Source of the DNA: a virus
Direction: 5' to 3' (one strand)
IMG/VR virus record: IMGVR_UViG_3300018080_005419
Length of the DNA stretch: 64,000 nucleotides
The translations under genes and the position numbers were made by a program. Shown in pieces: positions 3,387 to 14,763 of this stretch. The notes under the pieces are model-generated. The model made no database searches. It was not told the origin of the DNA and was given only the letters and a program-made list of their open reading frames with translations. Every line of letters starts with the position of its first letter. The stretch's first letter is position 1.

Positions 3387-4076
3387 ATGTCAGATTCTAA
3401 AAAATTAGATGAACGGATTGAGCTAGTTCACGATTATTGGATTGATCCTGATAGTCGCGAAATTTGGATACATGGAATTGATAATACAGGTGATGAAGAA
3501 GGAGAGCCCGGTGTTGATCATCAAATGGCAACTCGTGTAATTAAAAATCTTCACTATCTCCGCAAACAATCTACAAGAGCAACTGTTACAATCCATCTCC
3601 ATACTTGTGGTGGATATGTAGGAGAAGGATTTGCTATTTACGATACTATCAGATTAATGCCTTATCCTGTAACAATCATCAGTTACACTCATGCCAGAAG
3701 TATGTCGTCAGTTATACTTCAAGCAGCAGCAGGACCAGATGATACAAGATTGCTTTTACCCAGTAGTCATTTTATGTTTCATTTTGGGTCATACGAAACA
3801 CATGGAATTTCTCAACAAGTTTATAGCGAAATTGATTTCTTTAAAAAGTATGATGAATTAATGATAGATATTTATATAGAATCTGTTAAAAATGGTAAAA
3901 AATTTAAAGGAGTAACAGATAAAAGAATCAGAAAAGAATTGATAGATAGAATGAACAGCAAAGTAGATGTTTATTTAACTGCTGAAGAAGCGGTTGAATG
4001 GGGATTTGCTGACGGAATACTTGAAACTTGGCCGAATACATGCAAATGGAAAAGAGGAAACACTAAGAAGGTTTAA
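3387..4076 (+). CDS. clpP: ClpP-like serine protease (S14 family)
   Basis: HTCGGYVGEGFAIYD, catalytic Ser in ARSMSS, His in HFMFH, Asp in DVYLTAEEAVEWGFAD. Confidence 0.85.
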   Translation: MSDSKKLDERIELVHDYWIDPDSREIWIHGIDNTGDEEGEPGVDHQMATRVIKNLHYLRKQSTRATVTIHLHTCGGYVGEGFAIYDTIRLMPYPVTIISYTHARSMSSVILQAAAGPDDTRLLLPSSHFMFHFGSYETHGISQQVYSEIDFFKKYDELMIDIYIESVKNGKKFKGVTDKRIRKELIDRMNSKVDVYLTAEEAVEWGFADGILETWPNTCKWKRGNTKKV

Positions 4077-4179
4077 ATTCAACGATTGTCAAATCTTCAT
4101 TTTCAAGCTCTTCTTCTATAATTTCCAAAACCTTATTCCAATCGCCACCTGCTAAACCACAACCTATTATCGTTTTCAT
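4063..4179 (-). pseudogene. 38-codon macro-domain remnant
   Basis: Manual translation gives MKTIIGCGLAGGDWNKVLEIIEEELENEDLTIVEFKPS. The ATG overlaps the stop of the upstream nuclease (ATGA). IGCGLAGGDW is the signature C-terminal loop of phage Poa1p-like macro domains. Confidence 0.65.
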
Positions 4180-5195
4180 GCTGATGGCCTTTTAGACAAA
4201 ATATAAGTAATTGTATCATCTGGTAATCCTACTTCTATTGCTCTTTTTTCAAGCATATCCCACACATCAATTCTGGATATTCCGATATTTGCCAAACTTT
4301 TTGCAACCTCTTCAAATTCAGCTTCTGTTACTTCCTTATCGTCAAATGAAACGCCAACCTTCTCGTCAATAAATGGCGCTCCTTCTTTAAATACCTCTTC
4401 TTGGGTTAATGCAGATTCAACATTCCACATTTCCCACTTATATTTTTTAGTTTTGGGATCGATTAATATATCAACTCCACGAATAGGTCTGTCTACATCA
4501 TATTCGTTCTTTTGAGTTCTTGCTAGCGATCCAGGATTTATAAAAAGTGTGCCAATATCAGTAATAGTAGGATTAAAGCCCTGATGAAGATCTCCGCATA
4601 AAACAACATCTATAGATCTTTTTCCGTCGTTTTCTGTTTTAAACTCTCTTAAATCAATACCATAATGTTCATCTAATTTATCCATTAACAAATGATGTAC
4701 AAGAACAACACGAATATCGATATCTTTTGGGCGTTTTCTACTTGAAACTCGCATAGACCATTTAATCGGGTCAGAACTATTAGGACAAGCCAAAAATCCA
4801 ATTTTTAACCCTTGAATGTCTTTAACTAAGTCTTTATCTGTAGGAATTTCTTCAATGTTTTCAATAACACGAGAAGCCTGTCTGAATATAAAAGCTTGAG
4901 TGGATAAATGTCGCGTTCCATAGTCTTTGCCGTATAGATCGTGTTGGCCCCATGTATATAAAAATGGAACTTTAAGATGTTCATCAAAAATATGGATAGC
5001 TTTTTCTTTAACTTGATCCGCATTAAGTCTATATGTATGACAAAAATCACCTCCGAACAGTGCTAAGTCTGATTCGGAGGCGTGTTGAATACAATCTTTT
5101 AATTTTCCTAGAATAGTTTCAGGGTAATCGTCTTTTCTGCTGATAGGACCCTGACCACGCAAATGAAGATCGGTAAAGAATGAAAGTCTAATCAT
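4176..5195 (-). CDS. SbcD/Mre11/gp47-like metallophosphoesterase nuclease
   Basis: FTDLHL, GGDFCH, WGQHD, LVHH, CGDLH, then INPGSLAR. Confidence 0.8.
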   Translation of the reverse strand: MIRLSFFTDLHLRGQGPISRKDDYPETILGKLKDCIQHASESDLALFGGDFCHTYRLNADQVKEKAIHIFDEHLKVPFLYTWGQHDLYGKDYGTRHLSTQAFIFRQASRVIENIEEIPTDKDLVKDIQGLKIGFLACPNSSDPIKWSMRVSSRKRPKDIDIRVVLVHHLLMDKLDEHYGIDLREFKTENDGKRSIDVVLCGDLHQGFNPTITDIGTLFINPGSLARTQKNEYDVDRPIRGVDILIDPKTKKYKWEMWNVESALTQEEVFKEGAPFIDEKVGVSFDDKEVTEAEFEEVAKSLANIGISRIDVWDMLEKRAIEVGLPDDTITYILSKRPSA

Positions 5196-5246
5196 TGTTT
5201 TTTCCTTGTTAATTATGTCGCAAGATAGCGGGTAATGTTTTAATTA

Positions 5247-5577: not shown

Positions 5578-7035
5578 CTACTCTATGGCCGTTAAGTCCA
5601 GTAAATGTCTGCTCTTTCCATTATAAAAGCAACCATCACTGTCAATATCAAACTTCCTTAACGGCACTGTCATAATATGCCCAGTTATCAAAGTTTTTTC
5701 AAGATCGTCAAAATGCTTCTCCCAAACAAAGAAAGATATGTCGTCAAAGTCGTCTGAAAATTCCACTATCCACATAGGATTCCCAGACTTTTTGGACACT
5801 GTTTTCTTAATTTTTCCTATAACTCCAAGGAAAACGCCCTCTTCCGTGTTCTTCAATTCTTCTATCTTTGAGATTCCATATTCGTCTAATTTATCGTATG
5901 TTTCCATAGGTATTAACGAATGGCTTAATGAAATTCCTAATAATTCTTCTTCTGCGCTTTTTCTTTCTTCTTCTCCAAAATGCACATACTCATAAGTTTT
6001 TTCTTTCCTTATTTCTCCTAAAAATTGATTAATCATAAATTCACGGTCGCCAAAACAATCAAAAGCGCCAGATTTAATCAGAGCCATAATTTTAGATTTA
6101 TTACACTTTCTTTTTTCAACCTTATCGTAAAAATCTTTGAGGGAGTTGAACGGCCTTTTAGTAAGAACTTCATTGGCACCAGCAGGACCTAAATTCTTAA
6201 TCATACTCAGGCCCCATCGAATAGTGTTTCCTTCTAAGGTGAATTTGTTTTCAGAATTGTTTACATCAGGGGGAATAATAGAAATACCCATCTTTCTAGC
6301 ATATTGAATATATTTTTTAAGAATGCTGCCACCTCTCTTATCCTTTTTGGCAATATCTGTAAAGTTTAAGAGAGCAGCCATAAATTGTATAGGGAAATGA
6401 ACTTTAAGGAATAATGACCAATATGCTACCATTGCATAAGATGCTGCGTGGCTTAAGTTGAAACCGTAGCCCCCATAATTTTTAAGAGTTTCAACAAAAG
6501 TATCTAATTGATCTTGCGTTATAAGTCCGTCTTTGACAGATTTTTGCGAACGTTTTTTAAAGTCTTCTAATAAAACTTGTAGTTTCTTCATTGTTTCAGC
6601 ATTATCTTTTCCCTTTGCTAATCCTTTTCTTAGAGCATTAGCTTCAGCACCAGAAAATCCTGCTAAACGTCTAGCAATTGCCATTGCACTTTCTTGGTAG
6701 ATTGGGAGATTGTAGGATCTATCCAGAACATCAGCAACAGCAGGAATCGACTCCCATCTTTCATATCCCTTCTTTCTCTTACCGTAAGTAACATGTAAAT
6801 TACCACTCAAAGGATCTGGTCTTCCCAAAGTAGTAGCAGCATACATATCAGCGAATGAATCAATCCCTATCTCTTTAATAATCCCAATAGCAACATCTGT
6901 CTCAAATTGAAAAATGCCAAATACATCTAATTTGTTCAAACGCTTAAAGCATTCTTGATCATCATCTGGAACTTTAGCCATATCAAGTGGTTCTGGAGAT
7001 ACATTTTCTACAATACCAGGGTCAATTTTAAGCAT
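5578..7035 (-). CDS. dnaE: DNA polymerase III alpha (family C), C-terminal fragment (fingers, HhH, OB-fold)
   Basis: EPLDMAKVPDDD, GIFQFE, LGRPDPL, LPIYQE, GYGFNLSHAASY, IRWGLSMIKNLG, LIKSGAFD, EEELLG and an OB-fold region. Confidence 0.92.
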   Translation of the reverse strand: MLKIDPGIVENVSPEPLDMAKVPDDDQECFKRLNKLDVFGIFQFETDVAIGIIKEIGIDSFADMYAATTLGRPDPLSGNLHVTYGKRKKGYERWESIPAVADVLDRSYNLPIYQESAMAIARRLAGFSGAEANALRKGLAKGKDNAETMKKLQVLLEDFKKRSQKSVKDGLITQDQLDTFVETLKNYGGYGFNLSHAASYAMVAYWSLFLKVHFPIQFMAALLNFTDIAKKDKRGGSILKKYIQYARKMGISIIPPDVNNSENKFTLEGNTIRWGLSMIKNLGPAGANEVLTKRPFNSLKDFYDKVEKRKCNKSKIMALIKSGAFDCFGDREFMINQFLGEIRKEKTYEYVHFGEEERKSAEEELLGISLSHSLIPMETYDKLDEYGISKIEELKNTEEGVFLGVIGKIKKTVSKKSGNPMWIVEFSDDFDDISFFVWEKHFDDLEKTLITGHIMTVPLRKFDIDSDGCFYNGKSRHLLDLTAIE

Positions 7036-7105
7036 TTCTCTATTTTCCTTTATATTTTTCCTAACAAGTGTGAATCTATTTTTACTTCAAACGGAGAATA
7101 ATAAA

Positions 7106-7375
7106 ATGGAAGAAAGACAAGATGAAGTTATTTTTCAAACCGCAGAAGAAGCTTTCCAAAAACTTGCCGATTTAACAGGCAAGAAAATAATGGTTCCTGA
7201 TAAGGCTGAACCAACAGTAGCAGAAGAAAATCAAGAAGAAGAAGCTGTTACTGGAGGCACAACAAAAGAATTAGCCGACAAGCTTAGAGAACAAGGTGAA
7301 AAATACGGAGAAGCAGCTGACAAATTAGAAGACATTGATTCTGAAATTGAATCTTTCGGAACAGCAATTGAATAG
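7106..7375 (+). CDS. Small acidic protein with AFQxLADxxGKKI motif, inserted antisense between the dnaE halves
   Basis: ATG at 7106 follows GGAG (the track starts at GTG 7070). Contains EEAFQKLADLTGKKIMV. Confidence 0.75.
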   Translation: MEERQDEVIFQTAEEAFQKLADLTGKKIMVPDKAEPTVAEENQEEEAVTGGTTKELADKLREQGEKYGEAADKLEDIDSEIESFGTAIE

Positions 7376-7378
7376 CAA

Positions 7379-9976
7379 TTAATCTAAACTCATCTCTAAA
7401 GCTGTTTCAGGAATTCCAATTAATTGATGTCCTGGCTCTAAGTCCCTAACTGTTGTTTCGTATATTTCTCCTTCCCAGTCTACTTCTACAATATCGTCTT
7501 CCTTTAAACGTATTAATCGACCGTCTTCTAATTTGATGACGGTCGTAGTTTTTTCAATTAGATCTAAAGCGTCTGAAATAATAGAAATCGTTCTTAATCC
7601 AAGAATGTCATATTTAACCAATCCAACTTCCTGAAGTTCTTTTAATGCTAATCCTTCAGTCCAACAAGCAACAACTTCTGCTTCGTCTTTGCCATCTTTT
7701 TTAGTTGTTAATTTTCGTACAGGAATCCATTTAGTAAGATCAACAGATGCTACAATCATACCTGCCGGATGTTTACCTATATTTCTAATTTGACCTCTTA
7801 AAGCTTTACATGCATTACTCATATAAGGATGTGCGTCAATTAGTCCTTTAATTGTTGGCTCTTTTTCTAACAAAGAACCCCAATCCATTTTATCAAGAGC
7901 GTCACCATCACTATCCGGATCATCATCATCTTTATATTTATCGTTCAATCCTTTAGTAATTGCATTTAAAAATCCAGGCTCAATACAAAAAACTCGTCCA
8001 ACATCTTTAATTGCTGTCTTTGTCCAAATTAATTGATAAGATCCAATACTACAAACGTGCTCTTCTCCAAATAATTTTCCCATTGCTTCTTTTACTTCTC
8101 GTCTATATCTTGGATCAACGTCCCAATCAATATCAGGAGGGTCAGATCTAGATTCGTCTAAAAATCGCTCGAAAAGAAGATTATACTTAATAGGATCAAG
8201 TTTTGTAATTTCTAAACAATACGATATTAAAGAACCAGCAGCACTTCCACGGCCAGGACCAGTCAATATCTTATGTTCTTTGCAATATTCAACAATCTTT
8301 CTGAAAATTAAAAAATAATCAGCAAAGTCAAGGTTTTCAATAACAGATAGTTCATGTTCCAATCTTTCTTCATATTTTGATTTGCCTGAAAGTTTAAATT
8401 TATCCATACCTTCTCGACAAAAAGATTTTAAATCAGCATTAGAATTATCACTCATCTTTGGTAATTTAATGGACGTATCAATGTCAAAGTTTTCAATAGA
8501 TCTAGCTAAACTTCTTGTGTCTCGAATAGCTTTCCAAAATATTTCCTCTGTAAAAACATCATCTTCGGGACCATGCATATCTTTCCAAGACTCGTATAAT
8601 TCATCTAATGTCTTAAAGTAGAAATCCTTTCCTTCAAACTCCCATACAGCATCTTCATTCAGAGACTTATCTAAATTACCTTCCCCTTTCATGATTCTAT
8701 CGGCATTTTCATCAAATACAGGAAGACAAGCCTCATATCCATTATCTTCTAAAAATTTACGAGCATATAAAAGACCATCTTGCAATATTGCTTGTTTACT
8801 TTCTAATTCGTTTTCTTCCTTCCATCTATCTGTTTTCGGATCTATTTCAAAACCTTCAGATGTTAATTTGGGCTTCATATATCCAGCAGCAACAGACATG
8901 GCTTTATCAACCATTGTTTTATTGTCTCGTATCATCAACAAAATATCGTGAACTTCTGAGTCTTCTTTTCTTAAATAATGTACATCTGTTGTAATTACAT
9001 ATTTAGCACCAACCCACTCACCAAATGCAATGAGCTTCCTATTAATGTCTATTTGTTCTTCCCATTCAATTAGGTTTAACTCGATATAAAAATCATCAAA
9101 AATGCTCTTATAAAAATCGTATCTCTCTTTTGCTATTTCTAATCTTTTATCCCAGGACACTTTTTCGTCATTTAGGATAGTAGGAATTTCTCCAGCGCCA
9201 CCATCAGTAGAAGTTGCAATGACTCCTTCTCCATGTTCTGCTAAAAAGTCACAATCTGTTCTTGGTTTATAATAGAATCCGTTTAATTCAGCATCGTTTT
9301 GAATTTGAATTATATTGAACCATCCCTTTAAATTTTTAGCCAATAGGATTTGATGAAAATTCCGACGATACTTCAACTTCATTTCGCCATCCATGTCTTT
9401 ATATGTTTCTTTCGGCAATTTTCTATATTGATTTAAATAAGCTTCAACTCCAAAGACGGGTTTCATTCCCAATTTTTTAGCCAGAATATATTGTTTTACC
9501 CATCCTCCAAGCGAACCATGATTTGTTGCTGTAAGATAAGTCCATCCCCTTTCCATCATTAGGTCTGCTCTTTTTTGTGCTGTTCCTAATCCATCACGCA
9601 AACTATATTCGTCATGTAAATGGAAATGAGCAAAATCTTCTAATGCTACCCTCTCAATAGTAGACAAAGTATCGTCGTCAATTTCGTCATCAATTCGAAC
9701 TGTTAAGTAATCCTTTATAGTTGGAGGATTGTCGCAATGGGAAAAGATTACAAGATTCGGATTGCAAATTTCTAATTCTTCTTGGAGAATTTCGGCATAA
9801 TTTTCATGATCCTTCAAGGTCACAAAAATGCACTGTTCTTTATCCAGATCAAGTCGTTCAAGGGTATAATCACAGTATTCTTGAGATGGTTCACTTTCTG
9901 TAACTATAACAAAATTATAGGACTTACGCTGAGGAGTTACAGGTTCAATATCTGGCAAATCAAGATAGGTAGGCAT
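7379..9976 (-). CDS. dnaE: DNA polymerase III alpha (family C), N-terminal fragment (N-extension, PHP, palm) with a 56-aa non-DnaE tail
   Basis: HFHLHDEYSLRDG, TNHGS, FGVEAY, ITTDVHY, GPGRGSAAGS, PPDIDWD, KHPAG, LVKYDILGLRT. Confidence 0.93.
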   Translation of the reverse strand: MPTYLDLPDIEPVTPQRKSYNFVIVTESEPSQEYCDYTLERLDLDKEQCIFVTLKDHENYAEILQEELEICNPNLVIFSHCDNPPTIKDYLTVRIDDEIDDDTLSTIERVALEDFAHFHLHDEYSLRDGLGTAQKRADLMMERGWTYLTATNHGSLGGWVKQYILAKKLGMKPVFGVEAYLNQYRKLPKETYKDMDGEMKLKYRRNFHQILLAKNLKGWFNIIQIQNDAELNGFYYKPRTDCDFLAEHGEGVIATSTDGGAGEIPTILNDEKVSWDKRLEIAKERYDFYKSIFDDFYIELNLIEWEEQIDINRKLIAFGEWVGAKYVITTDVHYLRKEDSEVHDILLMIRDNKTMVDKAMSVAAGYMKPKLTSEGFEIDPKTDRWKEENELESKQAILQDGLLYARKFLEDNGYEACLPVFDENADRIMKGEGNLDKSLNEDAVWEFEGKDFYFKTLDELYESWKDMHGPEDDVFTEEIFWKAIRDTRSLARSIENFDIDTSIKLPKMSDNSNADLKSFCREGMDKFKLSGKSKYEERLEHELSVIENLDFADYFLIFRKIVEYCKEHKILTGPGRGSAAGSLISYCLEITKLDPIKYNLLFERFLDESRSDPPDIDWDVDPRYRREVKEAMGKLFGEEHVCSIGSYQLIWTKTAIKDVGRVFCIEPGFLNAITKGLNDKYKDDDDPDSDGDALDKMDWGSLLEKEPTIKGLIDAHPYMSNACKALRGQIRNIGKHPAGMIVASVDLTKWIPVRKLTTKKDGKDEAEVVACWTEGLALKELQEVGLVKYDILGLRTISIISDALDLIEKTTTVIKLEDGRLIRLKEDDIVEVDWEGEIYETTVRDLEPGHQLIGIPETALEMSLD

Positions 9977-10100
9977 ATGTGTATCTTCTCCTTTCGTATA
10001 TCTTCTTTTATTCTACCTTTAGATCAAGAAAAAACTTCTATATTTCTTTATATTTTAGCCGTTTATGTAAGACGATTACTTTCTATAAGGAGTGAACACA

Positions 10101-11660
10101 ATGAATATTACTGGTGGACAGCTTAGGCTTCTCACAAAGGTTCTCCCAAGATTAAAGTTTGCTACAGTAGTCGGGCTTTCTCAATTTTTAGGGTTTGATC
10201 TTAATGGTTTGCTTAGTATCCGAACAGCAGGTAGAACCGCAGCTGTTGAGGATGAAGAAGCAAGAGAACAAGAAGACGTTGCACTAGAAGATATTATGGA
10301 GGGAAAAAGAGAGGAAGAAGAAACCCCCGCCAAAGATTATATTGAAGATCACTCAGATCCTACTATTGCTGCTTTTAATTCATATGTTGAAAATGATCTT
10401 GTTCGTAAAAAATATTTCCCAGATACAAAATTAAAACTACAAAAAGCCCTCGCAAATAATCCGAATGCCAACGAAATTATGCAAAAATTAAGTAGTCCTG
10501 AATTTACCAAATCAAGCAAAAAGCATACTGATATTAAAAAGGATGTCAGATCATATGCAAAGGAAGTTGGATTAACCGGGACAGAGATTGATTTAGCAGA
10601 TTCATATGTTTCACTACAAAGAATTCTTAACGGTAAATTTAGAACAGATTTTAAATCAATTATTATGAATCATGCTAAAAAAATAGTAAGTGCAAAAGTT
10701 CTTGAATCTTTAGAAGATGCTGTTGGTTGGATTATTACTGCTATAATACAAGGTCGAAAGATTCTGAACAAAAGTTTTTTACAGGGAGAGAGCGATCCCG
10801 AAAAGAGTTATTCATTAGAAGAACAAATTGATTTAAAGTATTTCGGAGAAGGAAAATACGTAGGTGCTCAAAGCATTATTGAAACACTTACACATCTTTC
10901 AAGGACAACAGCTGGAAATACTATAAAACTACTTAAAGGTGAAGAACATAGCAGTATACATGAGAGTGTAGGAGATGAAGAAGATTCTACAATGGGAGAT
11001 TTAATACGCGATAAAAGAACTGAAAGTCCTGATGAAGCTGAAATGAGAAGAGAAGTTAAAAAGATATTAGAAGAAGTTGTTAAAGAAAATGCAAAATCTA
11101 AAGAAGAAGCAGATACGATTTTATGGGCAATGGATTATGCTGAAAAGGCTCCCATTGAAAGAAAGGGAACCGGAGAAGGCGTAGGACTAGAAAGTACTTC
11201 ATATTATACTTCAGATCCAAAAGCATGGGAAGAAATTGGCATTATGTCGCAAAATGATTATAATAACCGAATAAGAGGTCCCATGCAAAGACTAAGACCG
11301 TTGATTGATGCACGTTTACGAAGCGAAATGGGAATTAGAATTTCATCTATTCTCAGTCAACAATTGTTAATTCGTGCAGCTGGAGGAGGCAAATTAAAAT
11401 TAGCATCTAAGATTTCTAACGTATCACCTTGGAGAAATTTTGGCAACGTTAAGGTATACGAAGCTGGCAAACCACAATTTGCTCACGAATTTTATTGGGA
11501 AATTGACGGTAACAAGGTTAAAATAGCAGATGTGCAGGATGTTGACGAAGAACATATCGATGAAGCATATCAGTCAGCACTGCAAGCTGTTCAACAAGAA
11601 GCATTTCGATCTAATTTAGAAGAAAAAGAGAAAAATAGTGTTGAAGGAAATATGGGCTAA
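10101..11660 (+). CDS. Large divergent sigma-70-like protein
   Basis: ATG at 10101 follows AAGGAG. SIHESVGDEEDSTMGDLIRDKRTESPDEAEMRREVKKILEEV closely matches sigma-70 region 3.2. Weaker region-2-like (LEDAVGWIITAI) and region-4-like (WEEIGI...RGPMQRLR) segments are present. Confidence 0.55.
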   Translation: MNITGGQLRLLTKVLPRLKFATVVGLSQFLGFDLNGLLSIRTAGRTAAVEDEEAREQEDVALEDIMEGKREEEETPAKDYIEDHSDPTIAAFNSYVENDLVRKKYFPDTKLKLQKALANNPNANEIMQKLSSPEFTKSSKKHTDIKKDVRSYAKEVGLTGTEIDLADSYVSLQRILNGKFRTDFKSIIMNHAKKIVSAKVLESLEDAVGWIITAIIQGRKILNKSFLQGESDPEKSYSLEEQIDLKYFGEGKYVGAQSIIETLTHLSRTTAGNTIKLLKGEEHSSIHESVGDEEDSTMGDLIRDKRTESPDEAEMRREVKKILEEVVKENAKSKEEADTILWAMDYAEKAPIERKGTGEGVGLESTSYYTSDPKAWEEIGIMSQNDYNNRIRGPMQRLRPLIDARLRSEMGIRISSILSQQLLIRAAGGGKLKLASKISNVSPWRNFGNVKVYEAGKPQFAHEFYWEIDGNKVKIADVQDVDEEHIDEAYQSALQAVQQEAFRSNLEEKEKNSVEGNMG

Positions 11661-12057
11661 GCTTTTTGGTAGCAAAGAAAAAGAAGCTACATTAAATATC
11701 AATCTCAATATTAAAGTGAAAGACCTCGACAGATTTGTCGAGGTTCTTTCAAAAATATCTCATAACTCGAATAACAACTTCAATAATAGGGATATAATAG
11801 AAGAAAGAGAAGTCAATAATAAAAATCAATCTGAGGAAAGACAAATTATTAATAAACCCATATCTGAAAAGAAAAAACATTTAAGTGAGGATCCTATTAC
11901 AGCAAAAGATGTAGCTGAAATATTTAATTCAACTGGCATCCAAAAAGGAGTTGATAAAACAGGATCTGACCTTTATAGTCACTCAAAAGGATCTAGTACA
12001 GATAACCAAGTTTCATCTTTAAAGAAACTCAAGAAAAAAGGAAATCAAAATGGTTAA
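11638..12057 (+). CDS. Hypothetical protein with putative N-terminal amphipathic helix
   Basis: Starts MLKEIWAKLFGSK and overlaps both neighbours, suggesting translational coupling. Confidence 0.7.
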   Translation: MLKEIWAKLFGSKEKEATLNINLNIKVKDLDRFVEVLSKISHNSNNNFNNRDIIEEREVNNKNQSEERQIINKPISEKKKHLSEDPITAKDVAEIFNSTGIQKGVDKTGSDLYSHSKGSSTDNQVSSLKKLKKKGNQNG

Positions 12058-13210
12058 AGAGAAAAAAGAAATTGCAGAAGTTCAAGACATTACAGATGAA
12101 GTTTTAAAGGCTGCTGAAAAACCAATTCAAAGAAAAGCTGTTACTGATGAAAATACAAAATATGGTGTTGGTCTAGATGTAGGAACAGCATTTGTTGTAG
12201 GTTCACGTCAAATCGATGATAAGGTTGAATTCAGATCGATCCGAAATGCTTATTATGCAATGCCCCCAAATCCGGTTATGCAAAAATTATTAACTGACGC
12301 AAGTAAAAAAGACAATGATTCTGAAAATGATCATGGTGGAACGGGTTATCTAGAAATGAATGGCGAAATTATTGTTATTGGAGAAAAAGCTTTAGCCTAT
12401 GCTGCAAGTAATCATTCTAATACTCGTAGACCAATGCAAAAAGGTGTTCTTTCACCCGATGACAATGCGGAAGCAATCATGTCTGTTCTGGTACAAAAGG
12501 CATTAGGAGAACCAAAAAAGAAAAATGAAGTTTGTCGTTTTTCTGTTCCTGCTGAGCCTTTTGATGACAAAGATATCGACATTATTTTCCATGAAGGTAT
12601 GGTTTCGGCTATTCTTGAAGATCTGGGTTATTCTGCACAAGCTATTAATGAAGGTGAAGCAATCTGTTATAGTGAATTGTCATCGGAAGAAGATCGTTTG
12701 ACTGGTGGCGCTTTTTCTCTTGGTGGCGGACAAAGCAACGGTTGTATTATGTTTGAAGGTCGTCCTGTGATTAGCTTCAGTGTTGCTCGTGGTGGTGACT
12801 GGATAGATGAAAAGAGCTTCAAGCATGCAAGAATGCAAAGTGCTGCCGAAATGACCTATTTTAAAGAGAATAATAAAGTTGATCTAATAAGTCCTAAAGG
12901 TTGCACAGATAATGATAGAGCAGCAGCAGCATTAGCTATGTATTATCGTTATCATATTCGATCTCTAGTTGAAGCTGTATCTGATCTGATCTCTAAAGAA
13001 AAAGTAGTGCCGACATTTGATAAACCAATTAAGTGGGTTGTTGGTGGTGGAACTTCGAGGGCAGTAAACTGTGTTCAAATGATAAAAGACGAGTTTTCTA
13101 AACAAAAATTGCCATTTGTCTTAGAAGATGTTGTCCAGGCAGAAAATCCAATGACATCTGTTTCAAATGGATGTTTGATTGCTGCAAGGCTGGATGAAGA
13201 TGAAGAATAA
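12050..13210 (+). CDS. Actin-like ATPase (MreB/ParM/FtsA superfamily)
   Basis: Phosphate-1 GLDVGT, connect-1 INEGEA, phosphate-2-like SLGGGQS, GGDWID, adenosine VVGGGTS, connect-2 NPMTSVSNG. Confidence 0.8.
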   Translation: MVKEKKEIAEVQDITDEVLKAAEKPIQRKAVTDENTKYGVGLDVGTAFVVGSRQIDDKVEFRSIRNAYYAMPPNPVMQKLLTDASKKDNDSENDHGGTGYLEMNGEIIVIGEKALAYAASNHSNTRRPMQKGVLSPDDNAEAIMSVLVQKALGEPKKKNEVCRFSVPAEPFDDKDIDIIFHEGMVSAILEDLGYSAQAINEGEAICYSELSSEEDRLTGGAFSLGGGQSNGCIMFEGRPVISFSVARGGDWIDEKSFKHARMQSAAEMTYFKENNKVDLISPKGCTDNDRAAAALAMYYRYHIRSLVEAVSDLISKEKVVPTFDKPIKWVVGGGTSRAVNCVQMIKDEFSKQKLPFVLEDVVQAENPMTSVSNGCLIAARLDEDEE

Positions 13211-13358
13211 ACAACAGCCAATAAAAGGCATTAATTTAGATTTACTTAAAAAGAAATTGCAAGATGCAGAGGATGACGAAAACGATTATCCTTCCTCTTC
13301 TTTGATTTTAAAGCTCGTCAGAGGAATTAAGCCGCATGCCAAACAACGTGAGCGGTGA
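13200..13358 (+). CDS. Putative 52-aa small protein
   Basis: Manual translation gives MKNKQQPIKGINLDLLKKKLQDAEDDENDYPSSSLILKLVRGIKPHAKQRER. It overlaps the end of the actin-like gene and fills the gap to the next gene. Confidence 0.45.
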   Translation: MKNKQQPIKGINLDLLKKKLQDAEDDENDYPSSSLILKLVRGIKPHAKQRER

Positions 13359-14007
13359 GGACTATGACGAAGATATAACCATAGAACTTGCTCAATATAC
13401 TGAACCTGCCCTTAGCTCTGCATTGATGATTCGTCGCAGACTTGATTCAACTAATAAGAAAAACTTTAATCAAGACAGTTTTAATAAAAAATTTCCAGGC
13501 CAAAGAAATTTAGATATTGGTTGCGGGAACTGTGTAGAAAAAGGCTGGATTCGTTTAGATTGCAATGAAAGATATAAACCAGATTTATTAATGGATGCAC
13601 ATAATATTTTATTAGGAAATAATTGTATAGATTTAGCCAGAATGCATTATGTTCTAGGATATGTAATAGAGCCGTCTAAAGTATTGTCAGAAGTATGGAG
13701 AATCTTAAAACCGAATTCATTATTGTATCTAGTAAATGGCGCTCCTGCATCTGATATTCAACTAATGCCAGGAGTTCGTCACTCTTTTCCTAAACTTTTT
13801 TGGGAAGATGTTAATAAAAATAATCCAAGACTCTATATTCCTGAAGATTCAAAAGGAAAATGGGAATTAGAAGATGAGAGATACGATTGGTCGCAAACCG
13901 CAAACAAACTCGCATCAAAATTAAAACTAACAAGAGAATTGGTCGTTACTACATTCAGAAATGTAGTAAGTAAGCAATATATAACTCTTCGAAAAATTTC
14001 AAAATAG
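13336..14007 (+). CDS. Class I SAM-dependent methyltransferase-like protein
   Basis: Motif I LDIGCG, GWIRLD, MDAH, VLSEVWRILKP. The true start may be downstream. Confidence 0.75.
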   Translation: MPNNVSGEDYDEDITIELAQYTEPALSSALMIRRRLDSTNKKNFNQDSFNKKFPGQRNLDIGCGNCVEKGWIRLDCNERYKPDLLMDAHNILLGNNCIDLARMHYVLGYVIEPSKVLSEVWRILKPNSLLYLVNGAPASDIQLMPGVRHSFPKLFWEDVNKNNPRLYIPEDSKGKWELEDERYDWSQTANKLASKLKLTRELVVTTFRNVVSKQYITLRKISK

Positions 14008-14009
14008 AA

Positions 14010-14192
14010 TTAAACAAAACCACTTTCAGCATCAAGAAATTTTTGATTTTGTTTCATAATCATATCTACAGTTTCTTTGTCAATGTTTAAATATTTTATC
14101 ATTAACTCTCTGGTTTTAGGACTTTGTCTTGGTATTACACTCATTAACAATTTTAACTGACCTTTTGAAAGACTATTTTTGTTAATATCCAT
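14010..14192 (-). CDS. 60-aa protein homologous to the N-terminus of the 10101 sigma-like protein
   Basis: GQLKLLMSVIPRQSPKTRELMIKYLNID aligns with GQLRLLTKVLPRLKFATVVGLSQFLGFD. AGGAG RBS. Confidence 0.7.
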   Translation of the reverse strand: MDINKNSLSKGQLKLLMSVIPRQSPKTRELMIKYLNIDKETVDMIMKQNQKFLDAESGFV

Positions 14193-14244
14193 TTTATTTT
14201 CCTCCTTATTACAACATAATAAATCATCTTTCGCCTATATATAC

Positions 14245-14274
14245 AAAACCCCACAATAAAATTTGTGAGGTTTT
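14245..14274. terminator. Probable bidirectional intrinsic terminator
   Basis: aaaaccccacaa...ttgtgaggtttt hairpin, with A-rich left flank and T-rich right flank on the plus strand. Confidence 0.55.
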
Positions 14275-14307
14275 TTATTTTTTAATAAAGATTTTTGTTA
14301 GATGAAA

Positions 14308-14763
14308 TCAAGGTTGGACGATTTTGCTCGTATCTCCTTGAGGAACAATAATTTGTGATTGTTGTTCTCTTTGTTGCTGCTTTGCTTTTTCTTGTTCTAT
14401 TGCTATTCTTTGCCTTGTTTTATCAAGTTCTTTATCCATTATTGTATCAAATTTGTCTATAGCTTCTCTGGCATTTTTAATACCAGTCATTTGGAAGCTA
14501 TATGGTGTTAGTTGACCCATTGCCATTACGTGAGTTTTGCCAATGAACTTTCGAGGTTTATCTTTATCAATTGAAATTTTACCAGATTGAGAAATACTTA
14601 TAGGTACTAACATATCAATAGCAACCAATTGGCTATCTGTAATACACTCTAACTTATACAATTGACGATCTGACGTAGAAATACGGCTAATGTCTTCTTT
14701 TGGTTGTTCTTCTTTCTTTTCTTCTTCTTGTTTCTTGTCATCTTCTTTTCTTTCTTCTTCCAT
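14308..14763 (-). CDS. Hypothetical protein
   Basis: 151-aa ORF with charged termini. No family recognised. Confidence 0.7.
   Translation of the reverse strand: MEEERKEDDKKQEEEKKEEQPKEDISRISTSDRQLYKLECITDSQLVAIDMLVPISISQSGKISIDKDKPRKFIGKTHVMAMGQLTPYSFQMTGIKNAREAIDKFDTIMDKELDKTRQRIAIEQEKAKQQQREQQSQIIVPQGDTSKIVQP

Follow-up and report, generated by a model that had tools for sequence, protein, structure and literature searches.

What does a jumbo phage do with an actin-like protein of its own, and by what means would filaments of such a protein be held in place in the infected cell? This question is raised by a 64,000-nucleotide stretch of viral DNA (IMG/VR record IMGVR_UViG_3300018080_005419; hereafter the window), in which the gene for a 386-aa actin-like ATPase overlaps the end of a small upstream gene for a 139-aa protein (hereafter the partner). 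We established the family membership and fold of the actin, the reality of the partner gene, the conservation of the gene pair and of the cassette around it, and the physico-chemical profile of the N-terminal helix of the partner. We lean towards a phage-borne actin filament with a dedicated small adaptor, of which the C-terminal module would sit on the filament and the N-terminal helix would point toward the membrane, with an organising role in the cell; the N-terminal helix as the possible tie between filament and membrane is a tentative part of this reading. The features on which the argument turns are the following.

11638–12057, plus strand: partner protein, 139 aa, GTG start; mostly disordered; three conserved modules; of an unnamed family.
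11638–11670, plus strand: N-terminal amphipathic helix of the partner (residues 1–11); conserved; candidate membrane-targeting sequence.
11890–12042, plus strand: C-terminal module of the partner (residues 85–135); conserved; candidate filament-binding peptide.
12050–13210, plus strand: Volactin-family actin-like ATPase, 386 aa; identified with Pfam PF25216, AlphaFold2 (AF2) and Foldseek.
12713–12739, plus strand: phosphate-2 motif of the actin starting with Ser223; from an 18-sequence alignment.

The 386-aa protein matched the Pfam family Volactin (PF25216) with 190.4 bits (E 7.3e-56) over profile positions 3–321 of 321, where the gathering cut-off is 35 bits, and the profile was specific, with 1 of 14 control genomes above this cut-off. 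The Pfam MreB_Mbl profile (PF06723) gave a local match of 17 bits, below its 27-bit cut-off, the ParM family was not among the Pfam matches of the actin up to E 1, and no family for this protein was found in PHROG or NCBIfam. All five actin motifs are present, namely phosphate-1 (residues 41–46), connect-1 (199–204), phosphate-2 (222–230), adenosine (330–336) and connect-2 (373–379). An AF2 model built on 18 relatives reached a predicted local distance difference test (pLDDT) score of 84.5 and a predicted template-modelling (pTM) score of 0.84, with low confidence at residues 1–38 and in an insert at 88–100. Together, the PF25216 match, the motifs and the model bear out the claim of an actin-fold ATPase made by an earlier, sequence-only reading of this DNA. 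The nearest structures in the Protein Data Bank (PDB) by Foldseek were MreB of several species, MamK and BeeR, followed by actin and Arp proteins, ParM (ranked 28th) and crenactin. A grouping with the non-polymerising kinases or chaperones of the ASKHA (acetate and sugar kinases, Hsc70, actin) superfamily, which the same reading had held out as the alternative, was not found: besides the Volactin match, the top 50 Foldseek matches were all actins, with no kinase or Hsp70 among them, and a profile search against PDB sequences gave MamK (1.4e-6) and MreB (3.5e-5). By sequence and model, the 386-aa protein groups with polymerising actins rather than with kinases or chaperones. No membrane-binding element was found on the actin itself, and its residues 1–38 form an acidic extension that is predicted to be disordered (pLDDT <50).

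The name of the Volactin family dates from 2024 and goes back to a haloarchaeon. The actin of the window resembles volactin in its Pfam family (190 bits) and in its actin fold, but it comes from a bacterial jumbo phage and not from an archaeon, begins phosphate-2 with Ser instead of the Asp of volactin, carries the 38-residue acidic N-terminal extension and falls into a clade of its own when compared with cellular sequences in a tree. In Haloferax volcanii, volactin (VolA, HVO_2015) builds dynamic filaments that meet the membrane at their tips, a behaviour known for this protein only, and the factors that bind it are stated to be unknown (PMC10869688). It is because of these two points, the tips that touch the membrane and the unknown binding factors, that a hypothesis on the partner gains a concrete use.

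The clade of the window's own actin comprises ∼25 clusters with 47–87% identity, all of them metagenomic, and the next relatives are at ∼36%. Among 185,579 species genomes, 557 loci carried a relative of the actin, and the best 80 of these 557 came nearly all from Planctomycetota, with a few from Omnitrophota, Lentisphaerota and bins of other phyla, at 33–37% identity. Several of these best 80 loci lie on megabase chromosomal contigs, and each of two complete planctomycete genomes holds one copy (271–279 bits). Relatives in INPHARED were confined to two huge uncultured phages (485 and 595 kb, 31–32% identity), so that this collection gave no close isolate and no clue to the host; a peptide-pattern scan of viral_contigs returned no relative. 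In a quick maximum-likelihood tree, in which several long branches meet and the deep order is unsure, the clade of the window formed its own group of 10 rows on a long stem, with a value of 99 in the Shimodaira–Hasegawa-like approximate likelihood-ratio test (SH-aLRT). Bacterial sequences of the Planctomycetota–Verrucomicrobiota–Chlamydiota (PVC) type made up a second group, within which a second phage lineage including LR745208 was nested, and a third group of unknown taxonomy stood separate. The best viral structural match of the actin was gp506 of the jumbo Bacillus phage G (BFVD, E 1.9e-10), yet at 12% identity, and this match implies that actin-fold genes occur in other jumbo phages. No paper linking volactin to phages was found in a literature search, and the volactin-type clade in jumbo phages is new with respect to the literature searched.

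The second phage or phage-like lineage consists of volactin-type genes at 31–38% identity in the loci L090 (LR745208.1), L006 and L007, where they lie amid large structural-looking genes and not among replication genes. By eye, the gene 5′ of the actin in L090 and L006 (207–229 aa) has a similar basic tail to that of the partner, and the gene upstream of the volactin-type gene in L007 is ferritin-like.

Is the small upstream gene a real and constant companion of the actin? In the window it overlaps the upstream 522-aa gene by 23 nt and the actin gene by 8 nt at the start of the latter; the overlap with the actin gene had been noted from the sequence. A homologue of the partner was found 5′ of the actin in every related locus with upstream DNA, down to 50% actin identity. 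It lies directly upstream in L001–L005, L088, L089, L094 and L095, and still does so in the last two, of which the actin is only 50% identical; in most relatives the stop of the one gene and the start of the other overlap or nearly abut. The coupling of a small upstream gene to the actin locus, which had been claimed from one genome, has thus proved to be that of a conserved, co-oriented and usually overlapping neighbour. Against the closest relative (L088), the proportions of nonsynonymous and synonymous differences (pN/pS) in the partner gene were 0.21/0.54 and the ratio of the corresponding rates (dN/dS) was about 0.25; hence the partner is under purifying selection and is a real gene.

The partner belongs to a small family. 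When 1.84 billion representative proteins were searched exhaustively with its profile, only 17 clusters of 73–139 aa came up, with no fused form among them; no family for the partner was found in Pfam, PHROG or NCBIfam, and a search for look-alikes in the ESM Atlas gave no usable match. This unnamed partner family, a constant companion of the volactin-type clade in jumbo phages, is new with respect to the literature searched. Three elements recur in the family: a helix at the extreme N-terminus with a Gly at its end; a strand of alternating residues, which is followed by a helix in some members; and, beyond a low-complexity linker that varies between members, a C-terminal module, ∼50 residues long, with a basic tail. 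The strand–helix segment is absent or reduced in short members, which keep the N-terminal helix and the C-terminal module. The AF2 model of the partner (pLDDT 52) is mostly disordered, with helices at residues 2–10, 30–43, 89–97 and 122–129, and the protein is net basic (25 Lys+Arg, 20 Asp+Glu).

The first of these elements bears on the membrane. Over residues 1–11, five of six orthologues had a hydrophobic moment of 0.55–0.68, a hydrophobicity of 0.74–0.93 and a net charge of +1 or +2; in the L088 partner the helix is displaced by 4 residues. On the same scale, the anchors of E. coli MreB, MinD and FtsA gave a moment of 0.55–0.66 and a hydrophobicity of 0.37–0.41. The physico-chemical profile of the N-terminal helix is therefore that of known membrane-targeting helices, or of stronger amphipathicity. 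In 16 representatives of the family the helix is conserved at the very N-terminus, and AF2 places it at residues 2–10, so that the amphipathic N-terminus earlier ascribed to the 139-aa protein holds both in these values and in its homologues. The element is compatible, from its sequence, with an in-plane membrane anchor that acts through many copies. MreB, the nearest solved structure to the window's actin (Foldseek E ∼1e-14, template-modelling score 0.6–0.7), holds an actin-like filament on the membrane by a short amphipathic helix or a membrane loop, to which the helix of the partner is comparable. In contrast to MreB, the helix here is on a separate 139-aa protein and not on the actin, there is no RodZ-like helix-turn-helix partner, and identity to MreB is 15–19%, with the MreB_Mbl score below its cut-off.

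The other end of the partner connects it to cellular genomes. The C-terminal module is the best-conserved part of the family and ends in a basic tail of the Leu-Lys-Lys-Leu-Lys type. A hidden Markov model (HMM) was made from the C-terminal module of the phage partners only and searched against 9074 six-frame open reading frames (ORFs) from all fetched loci. It gave 16 sub-threshold matches (E 0.5–9) outside the phage clade, 11 of which were ORFs adjoining planctomycetal or related volactin-type genes. Eight of these 11 lie directly upstream of the actin (L020, L060, L077, L010, L073, L026, L008 and L022), and the remaining three (L055, L065 and L087) are partner-type by position or by planctomycetal HMMs; the match was at the extreme C-terminus of the ORF in 9 of the 11, those with printed alignments. 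Of all ORFs in this search, well under 1% are of the partner type. The planctomycetal upstream ORFs encode a coiled-coil protein of 230–300 aa that has no Pfam family (for example, L082 3031–3915 and L022 3027–3869). A pattern for the tail, Gly-x-Gly/Ser-Ile/Val/Thr-x3-Leu/Val-x2-Leu/Met-Lys/Arg-Lys-Leu within the last 60 residues, matched 30 of the 9074 ORFs, of which 25 are planctomycetal upstream ORFs and the other 5 are phage partners. Moreover, the tail of the L094 partner looks intermediate between the phage and planctomycetal groups. Because the tails are basic but weakly hydrophobic (moment 0.36–0.47, hydrophobicity −0.10 to 0.27), their properties fit a protein-binding peptide better than a membrane anchor. 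No paper on the planctomycetal gene pair was found in the literature search, and the parallel pair of partner and actin in Planctomycetota, with a similar tail, is likewise new with respect to that literature.

The planctomycetal coiled-coil protein ends in a strongly conserved Gly-rich, Leu/Lys tail. Some 25 cellular loci (∼25) are without the coiled-coil gene, and in ∼20 of these 25 the frame of the actin extends upstream for 340–640 codons, which are mostly acidic; such extended frames lie in high-G+C DNA, where open frames of this kind can arise by chance. We considered these long in-frame N-terminal extensions in partner-less planctomycetal loci as possible Rosetta-stone fusions and rejected them, as they had no similarity to the partner.

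Conservation of neighbours can also be mere synteny, in which case the actin would need no partner or a different one, and the role of the small protein would be unrelated, such as that of a small membrane protein or of a regulator tied to the sigma-like or methyltransferase genes. The conserved cassette consists of four genes, for a sigma-like protein, the partner, the actin and an S-adenosylmethionine (SAM)-dependent methyltransferase, and since all four are conserved, linkage does not single out the pair of partner and actin; the low confidence of the AF2 model of the partner also leaves room for this explanation. However, the partner and actin genes overlap or nearly abut in most relatives, and there is an independent parallel in cells, where the coiled-coil HMM placed a partner gene with a similar tail directly 5′ of the volactin-type gene in 53 of ∼80 loci. 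We consider mere synteny very unlikely.

In ParR–ParM, arcadin-2–crenactin and the FtsZ peptide–FtsA pair, a C-terminal peptide that follows a disordered linker grips an actin-fold polymer. In the explanation that we propose, the 386-aa protein would polymerise into nucleotide-dependent filaments, as its family and fold suggest, and the 139-aa protein would be its dedicated adaptor, largely disordered and with two short functional elements. If ParR, arcadin-2 and FtsZ with their C-terminal peptides are a guide, the basic Leu/Lys tail would be the likeliest filament-binding peptide, and the N-terminal helix of 10–11 residues would sit in the cytoplasmic membrane once many copies were gathered along the polymer or at its end. 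Actin and adaptor would then tie phage filaments to the membrane of the host, with an organising role inside the infected cell. The cargo would most likely be replicating phage DNA or assembly sites, because the module lies in a region of replication genes. In a broader form of the proposal, volactin-type actins of bacteria and phages alike would have a dedicated partner family with a basic C-terminal tail that binds the filament, and the phage partner would be a minimal version in which this tail is combined with an N-terminal membrane-targeting helix; this is possible, but we regard it as rather doubtful.

Several observations weigh against this explanation, in its narrower or its broader form. 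The N-terminal helix is more hydrophobic than the known anchors and could be a motif buried between proteins, a gene lies between partner and actin in L096, and, with Ser where phosphate-2 usually has Asp, the actin may hydrolyse ATP weakly and show atypical dynamics. As for the tail, the pattern was written after both groups had been seen, the similarity is short and weak (hhalign aligned the two partner families, the planctomycetal one as alignment A6, tail to tail over 24 columns with P 0.011 and a probability of 3.8%), and a reciprocal HMM of the planctomycetal tail does not recover the phage partners. The planctomycetal partner is also without an N-terminal amphipathic helix, and anchoring by such a helix would thus be a speciality of the phage clade. 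For these four reasons a tail motif common to phage and planctomycetal partners, whether by descent or by convergence, is only suggestive.

The surroundings of the module raise the question of whether it moves DNA instead. The window is part of an environmental jumbo phage, an identical actin protein being on record on a 280-kb contig, and its DNA is present in metagenome runs from sediment and seawater; no RNA run with this DNA was listed among public runs. The module lies in a plus-strand island of five ORFs (10092–14007) that is enclosed by a long minus-strand block; on its flanks are genes for phage replication, namely a split DnaE, a DHH phosphoesterase, a 5′–3′ exonuclease of the flap endonuclease (FEN) type, a DnaB-like helicase, a primase and a UvsX-like recombinase. 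Further along the window come tail-like and virion genes. The replication module, the tail-like genes, the split DnaE and the 280-kb contig all identify the element as a phage, in agreement with the sequence-only reading, and no cellular genome was found for the window. Because sigma-70-like and DnaE/DnaB/DnaG-type genes are present, we infer that the host is bacterial. The window holds no second copy of the actin or the partner, and promoter-like and terminator-like sites around the cassette were not above chance. The DnaE of the window is encoded by two genes (5578–9976, minus strand) with a small inverted gene in between, and the N-terminal DnaE piece of the relatives L001 and L003 has matches to Hint/intein families.

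In a system of the ParMRC or AlpAC type, the small protein would be a DNA-binding adaptor for segregation or transport, during replication or in a plasmid-like carrier state, and not a membrane anchor. The position amid these replication genes would suit such a system, as would the net basic charge of the partner and the strand–helix segment after its N-terminal helix (residues 19–40 by sequence pattern; predicted helix 30–43), and among phages and plasmids there are precedents for an actin with a small adaptor that is transcribed together with it (PMC4446434). However, we found no centromere- or iteron-like repeat array in 9700–14400, that is, in or around the cassette, and the partner matched no ribbon-helix-helix or helix-turn-helix family in Pfam, PHROG or NCBIfam. 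The strand–helix segment is, moreover, the dispensable part of the family, which short members lack or reduce while the N-terminal helix and C-terminal module persist. ParMRC differs further in that no ParM or ParR family match was found here, and in that the partner gene lies 5′ and not 3′ of the actin and encodes an N-terminal amphipathic helix. A DNA-moving system of this type is, in our judgement, unlikely.

Phage cytoskeletons known in detail are tubulins (PhuZ) and one prophage actin (AlpC). The sequence-only reading had set the window's actin against the tubulin-like PhuZ of characterised jumbo phages, but this contrast was overstated, since a phage actin with an adaptor has a precedent in AlpAC of the Corynebacterium prophage CGP3 (PMC4446434). 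There, the actin-like protein AlpC and its small co-transcribed adaptor AlpA are expressed early and are needed for efficient phage DNA replication, and the DNA consensus bound by AlpA lies in the promoter of AlpA itself (PMC4446434). The likeness to the window is one of design, a phage-borne actin with an adjacent, co-oriented and overlapping small gene; in contrast to AlpAC, no repeat or DNA-binding fold was found here, and the actin belongs to a different Pfam family. With PhuZ, which forms a tubulin spindle in nucleus-forming jumbo phages, the window shares the principle that a jumbo phage supplies its own cytoskeletal polymer, but PhuZ is a tubulin and the protein of the window an actin.

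The catalytic site of the actin raises a further alternative. The Asp that is standard for ASKHA proteins at the start of phosphate-2 is absent from the window's actin, which has Ser223 there; Asp is found at this position in volactin of H. volcanii, MreB, ParM, FtsA and actin (Supplementary Fig. 8, PMC10869688). Ser223, Gly225, Gly227 and Asn230 were invariant in an alignment of 18 phage and cellular sequences. Thus the deviation in phosphate-2 that had been pointed out earlier is real in its Ser start, but is not peculiar to the phage, as it is common to all 18 aligned relatives. All 18 volactin-type proteins also have Asn in place of the acidic residue at the end of phosphate-2. Replacement of the phosphate-2 Asp impairs hydrolysis in MreB or ParM, and because of this, the Ser-bearing volactin-type proteins may, by analogy, hydrolyse ATP slowly or differently.

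A poorly hydrolysing subunit could stabilise or cap filaments, and the phage actin and partner might in this way serve to take over the host, disturbing its volactin-type or MreB system, and with it cell shape or division, by co-polymerising, by capping or by competition of the tails. Relatives in cells, at 33–37% identity, occur widely among Planctomycetota and other bacteria of the PVC group, and the tail of their partner is similar. However, Ser is also found in the cellular proteins and is therefore no change specific to a poison; the phage clade is deep-branching, stands on a long stem of its own (10 rows, SH-aLRT 99) and does not fall inside a host group; the phage retains actin and partner as a conserved pair; and its G+C content is 34%. 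Host takeover seems to us quite unlikely, and we return to the filament with a dedicated adaptor as the explanation that we favour.

The remaining genes of the cassette and the small ORF after the actin are as follows.

10092–11660, plus strand: sigma-70-like protein, 522 aa; local matches to RpoD region 3; heads the island.
13179–13358, plus strand: 59-aa ORF from TTG (52 codons from the ATG at 13200); probably not a gene.
13336–14007, plus strand: class I SAM-dependent methyltransferase, 223 aa; Pfam Methyltransf_11.

Residues 285–339 of the 522-aa protein matched RpoD region 3 in NCBIfam TIGR02393 (E 4.8e-6, far below the cut-off of that model) and Pfam Sigma70_r3 at E 0.1, and homologues lie upstream in L001, L003, L088, L089 and L096. 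The first 36 residues of this protein resemble a convergent 60-aa ORF (14010–14192, minus strand; 33% identity, pairwise E 6e-6). In L001, an insertion element with serine-resolvase and TnpB/Cas12f-like genes (3556–5197) lies between the sigma-like and partner genes, and an 81-aa gene on the opposite strand occupies the same interval in L001–L004, but not in the window or L088. The 223-aa protein matched Pfam Methyltransf_11 (E 2.5e-6), and a homologue is found 3′ of the actin in L003, L004, L089 (34% identity, E 3e-48), L094, L095 and L096, whereas the gene is inverted in L001 and L002.

The small ORF spans the 125-nt spacer between actin and methyltransferase, a spacer that is found in the window and perhaps also in the closest relative (L088, which ends inside this region). 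No space is left for it in L003, L004, L005, L094 and L096, where the methyltransferase gene directly adjoins the stop codon of the actin or overlaps with it. At the protein level the small ORF matched only the closest relative, in the stretch that it shares with the actin gene, and PHROG gave one weak match (E 0.03). Hence, of the downstream 52-codon ORF that had been counted to the module, the open frame and its overlap with the actin stand, but a part in the module does not, as five relatives have no room for it and it has no independent conservation; we rejected it as a third component, and it is probably not a gene.

This locus shows a deep-branching Volactin clade in large environmental phages that is always accompanied by a small partner gene, and Planctomycetota, in which to our knowledge actin-like systems have been little studied, carry a chromosomal volactin-type gene with an upstream partner of its own. 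The natural Ser-for-Asp exchange offers a way to learn how filament dynamics depend on hydrolysis in the Volactin family, and the 139-aa partner is small enough for direct biochemistry of filament binding and membrane anchoring. If the proposed explanation is true, the partner would be the first identified filament-to-membrane tether for the Volactin family, and would give a compact handle on how the tips of volactin filaments attach to membranes and on what use an actin is to a jumbo phage.

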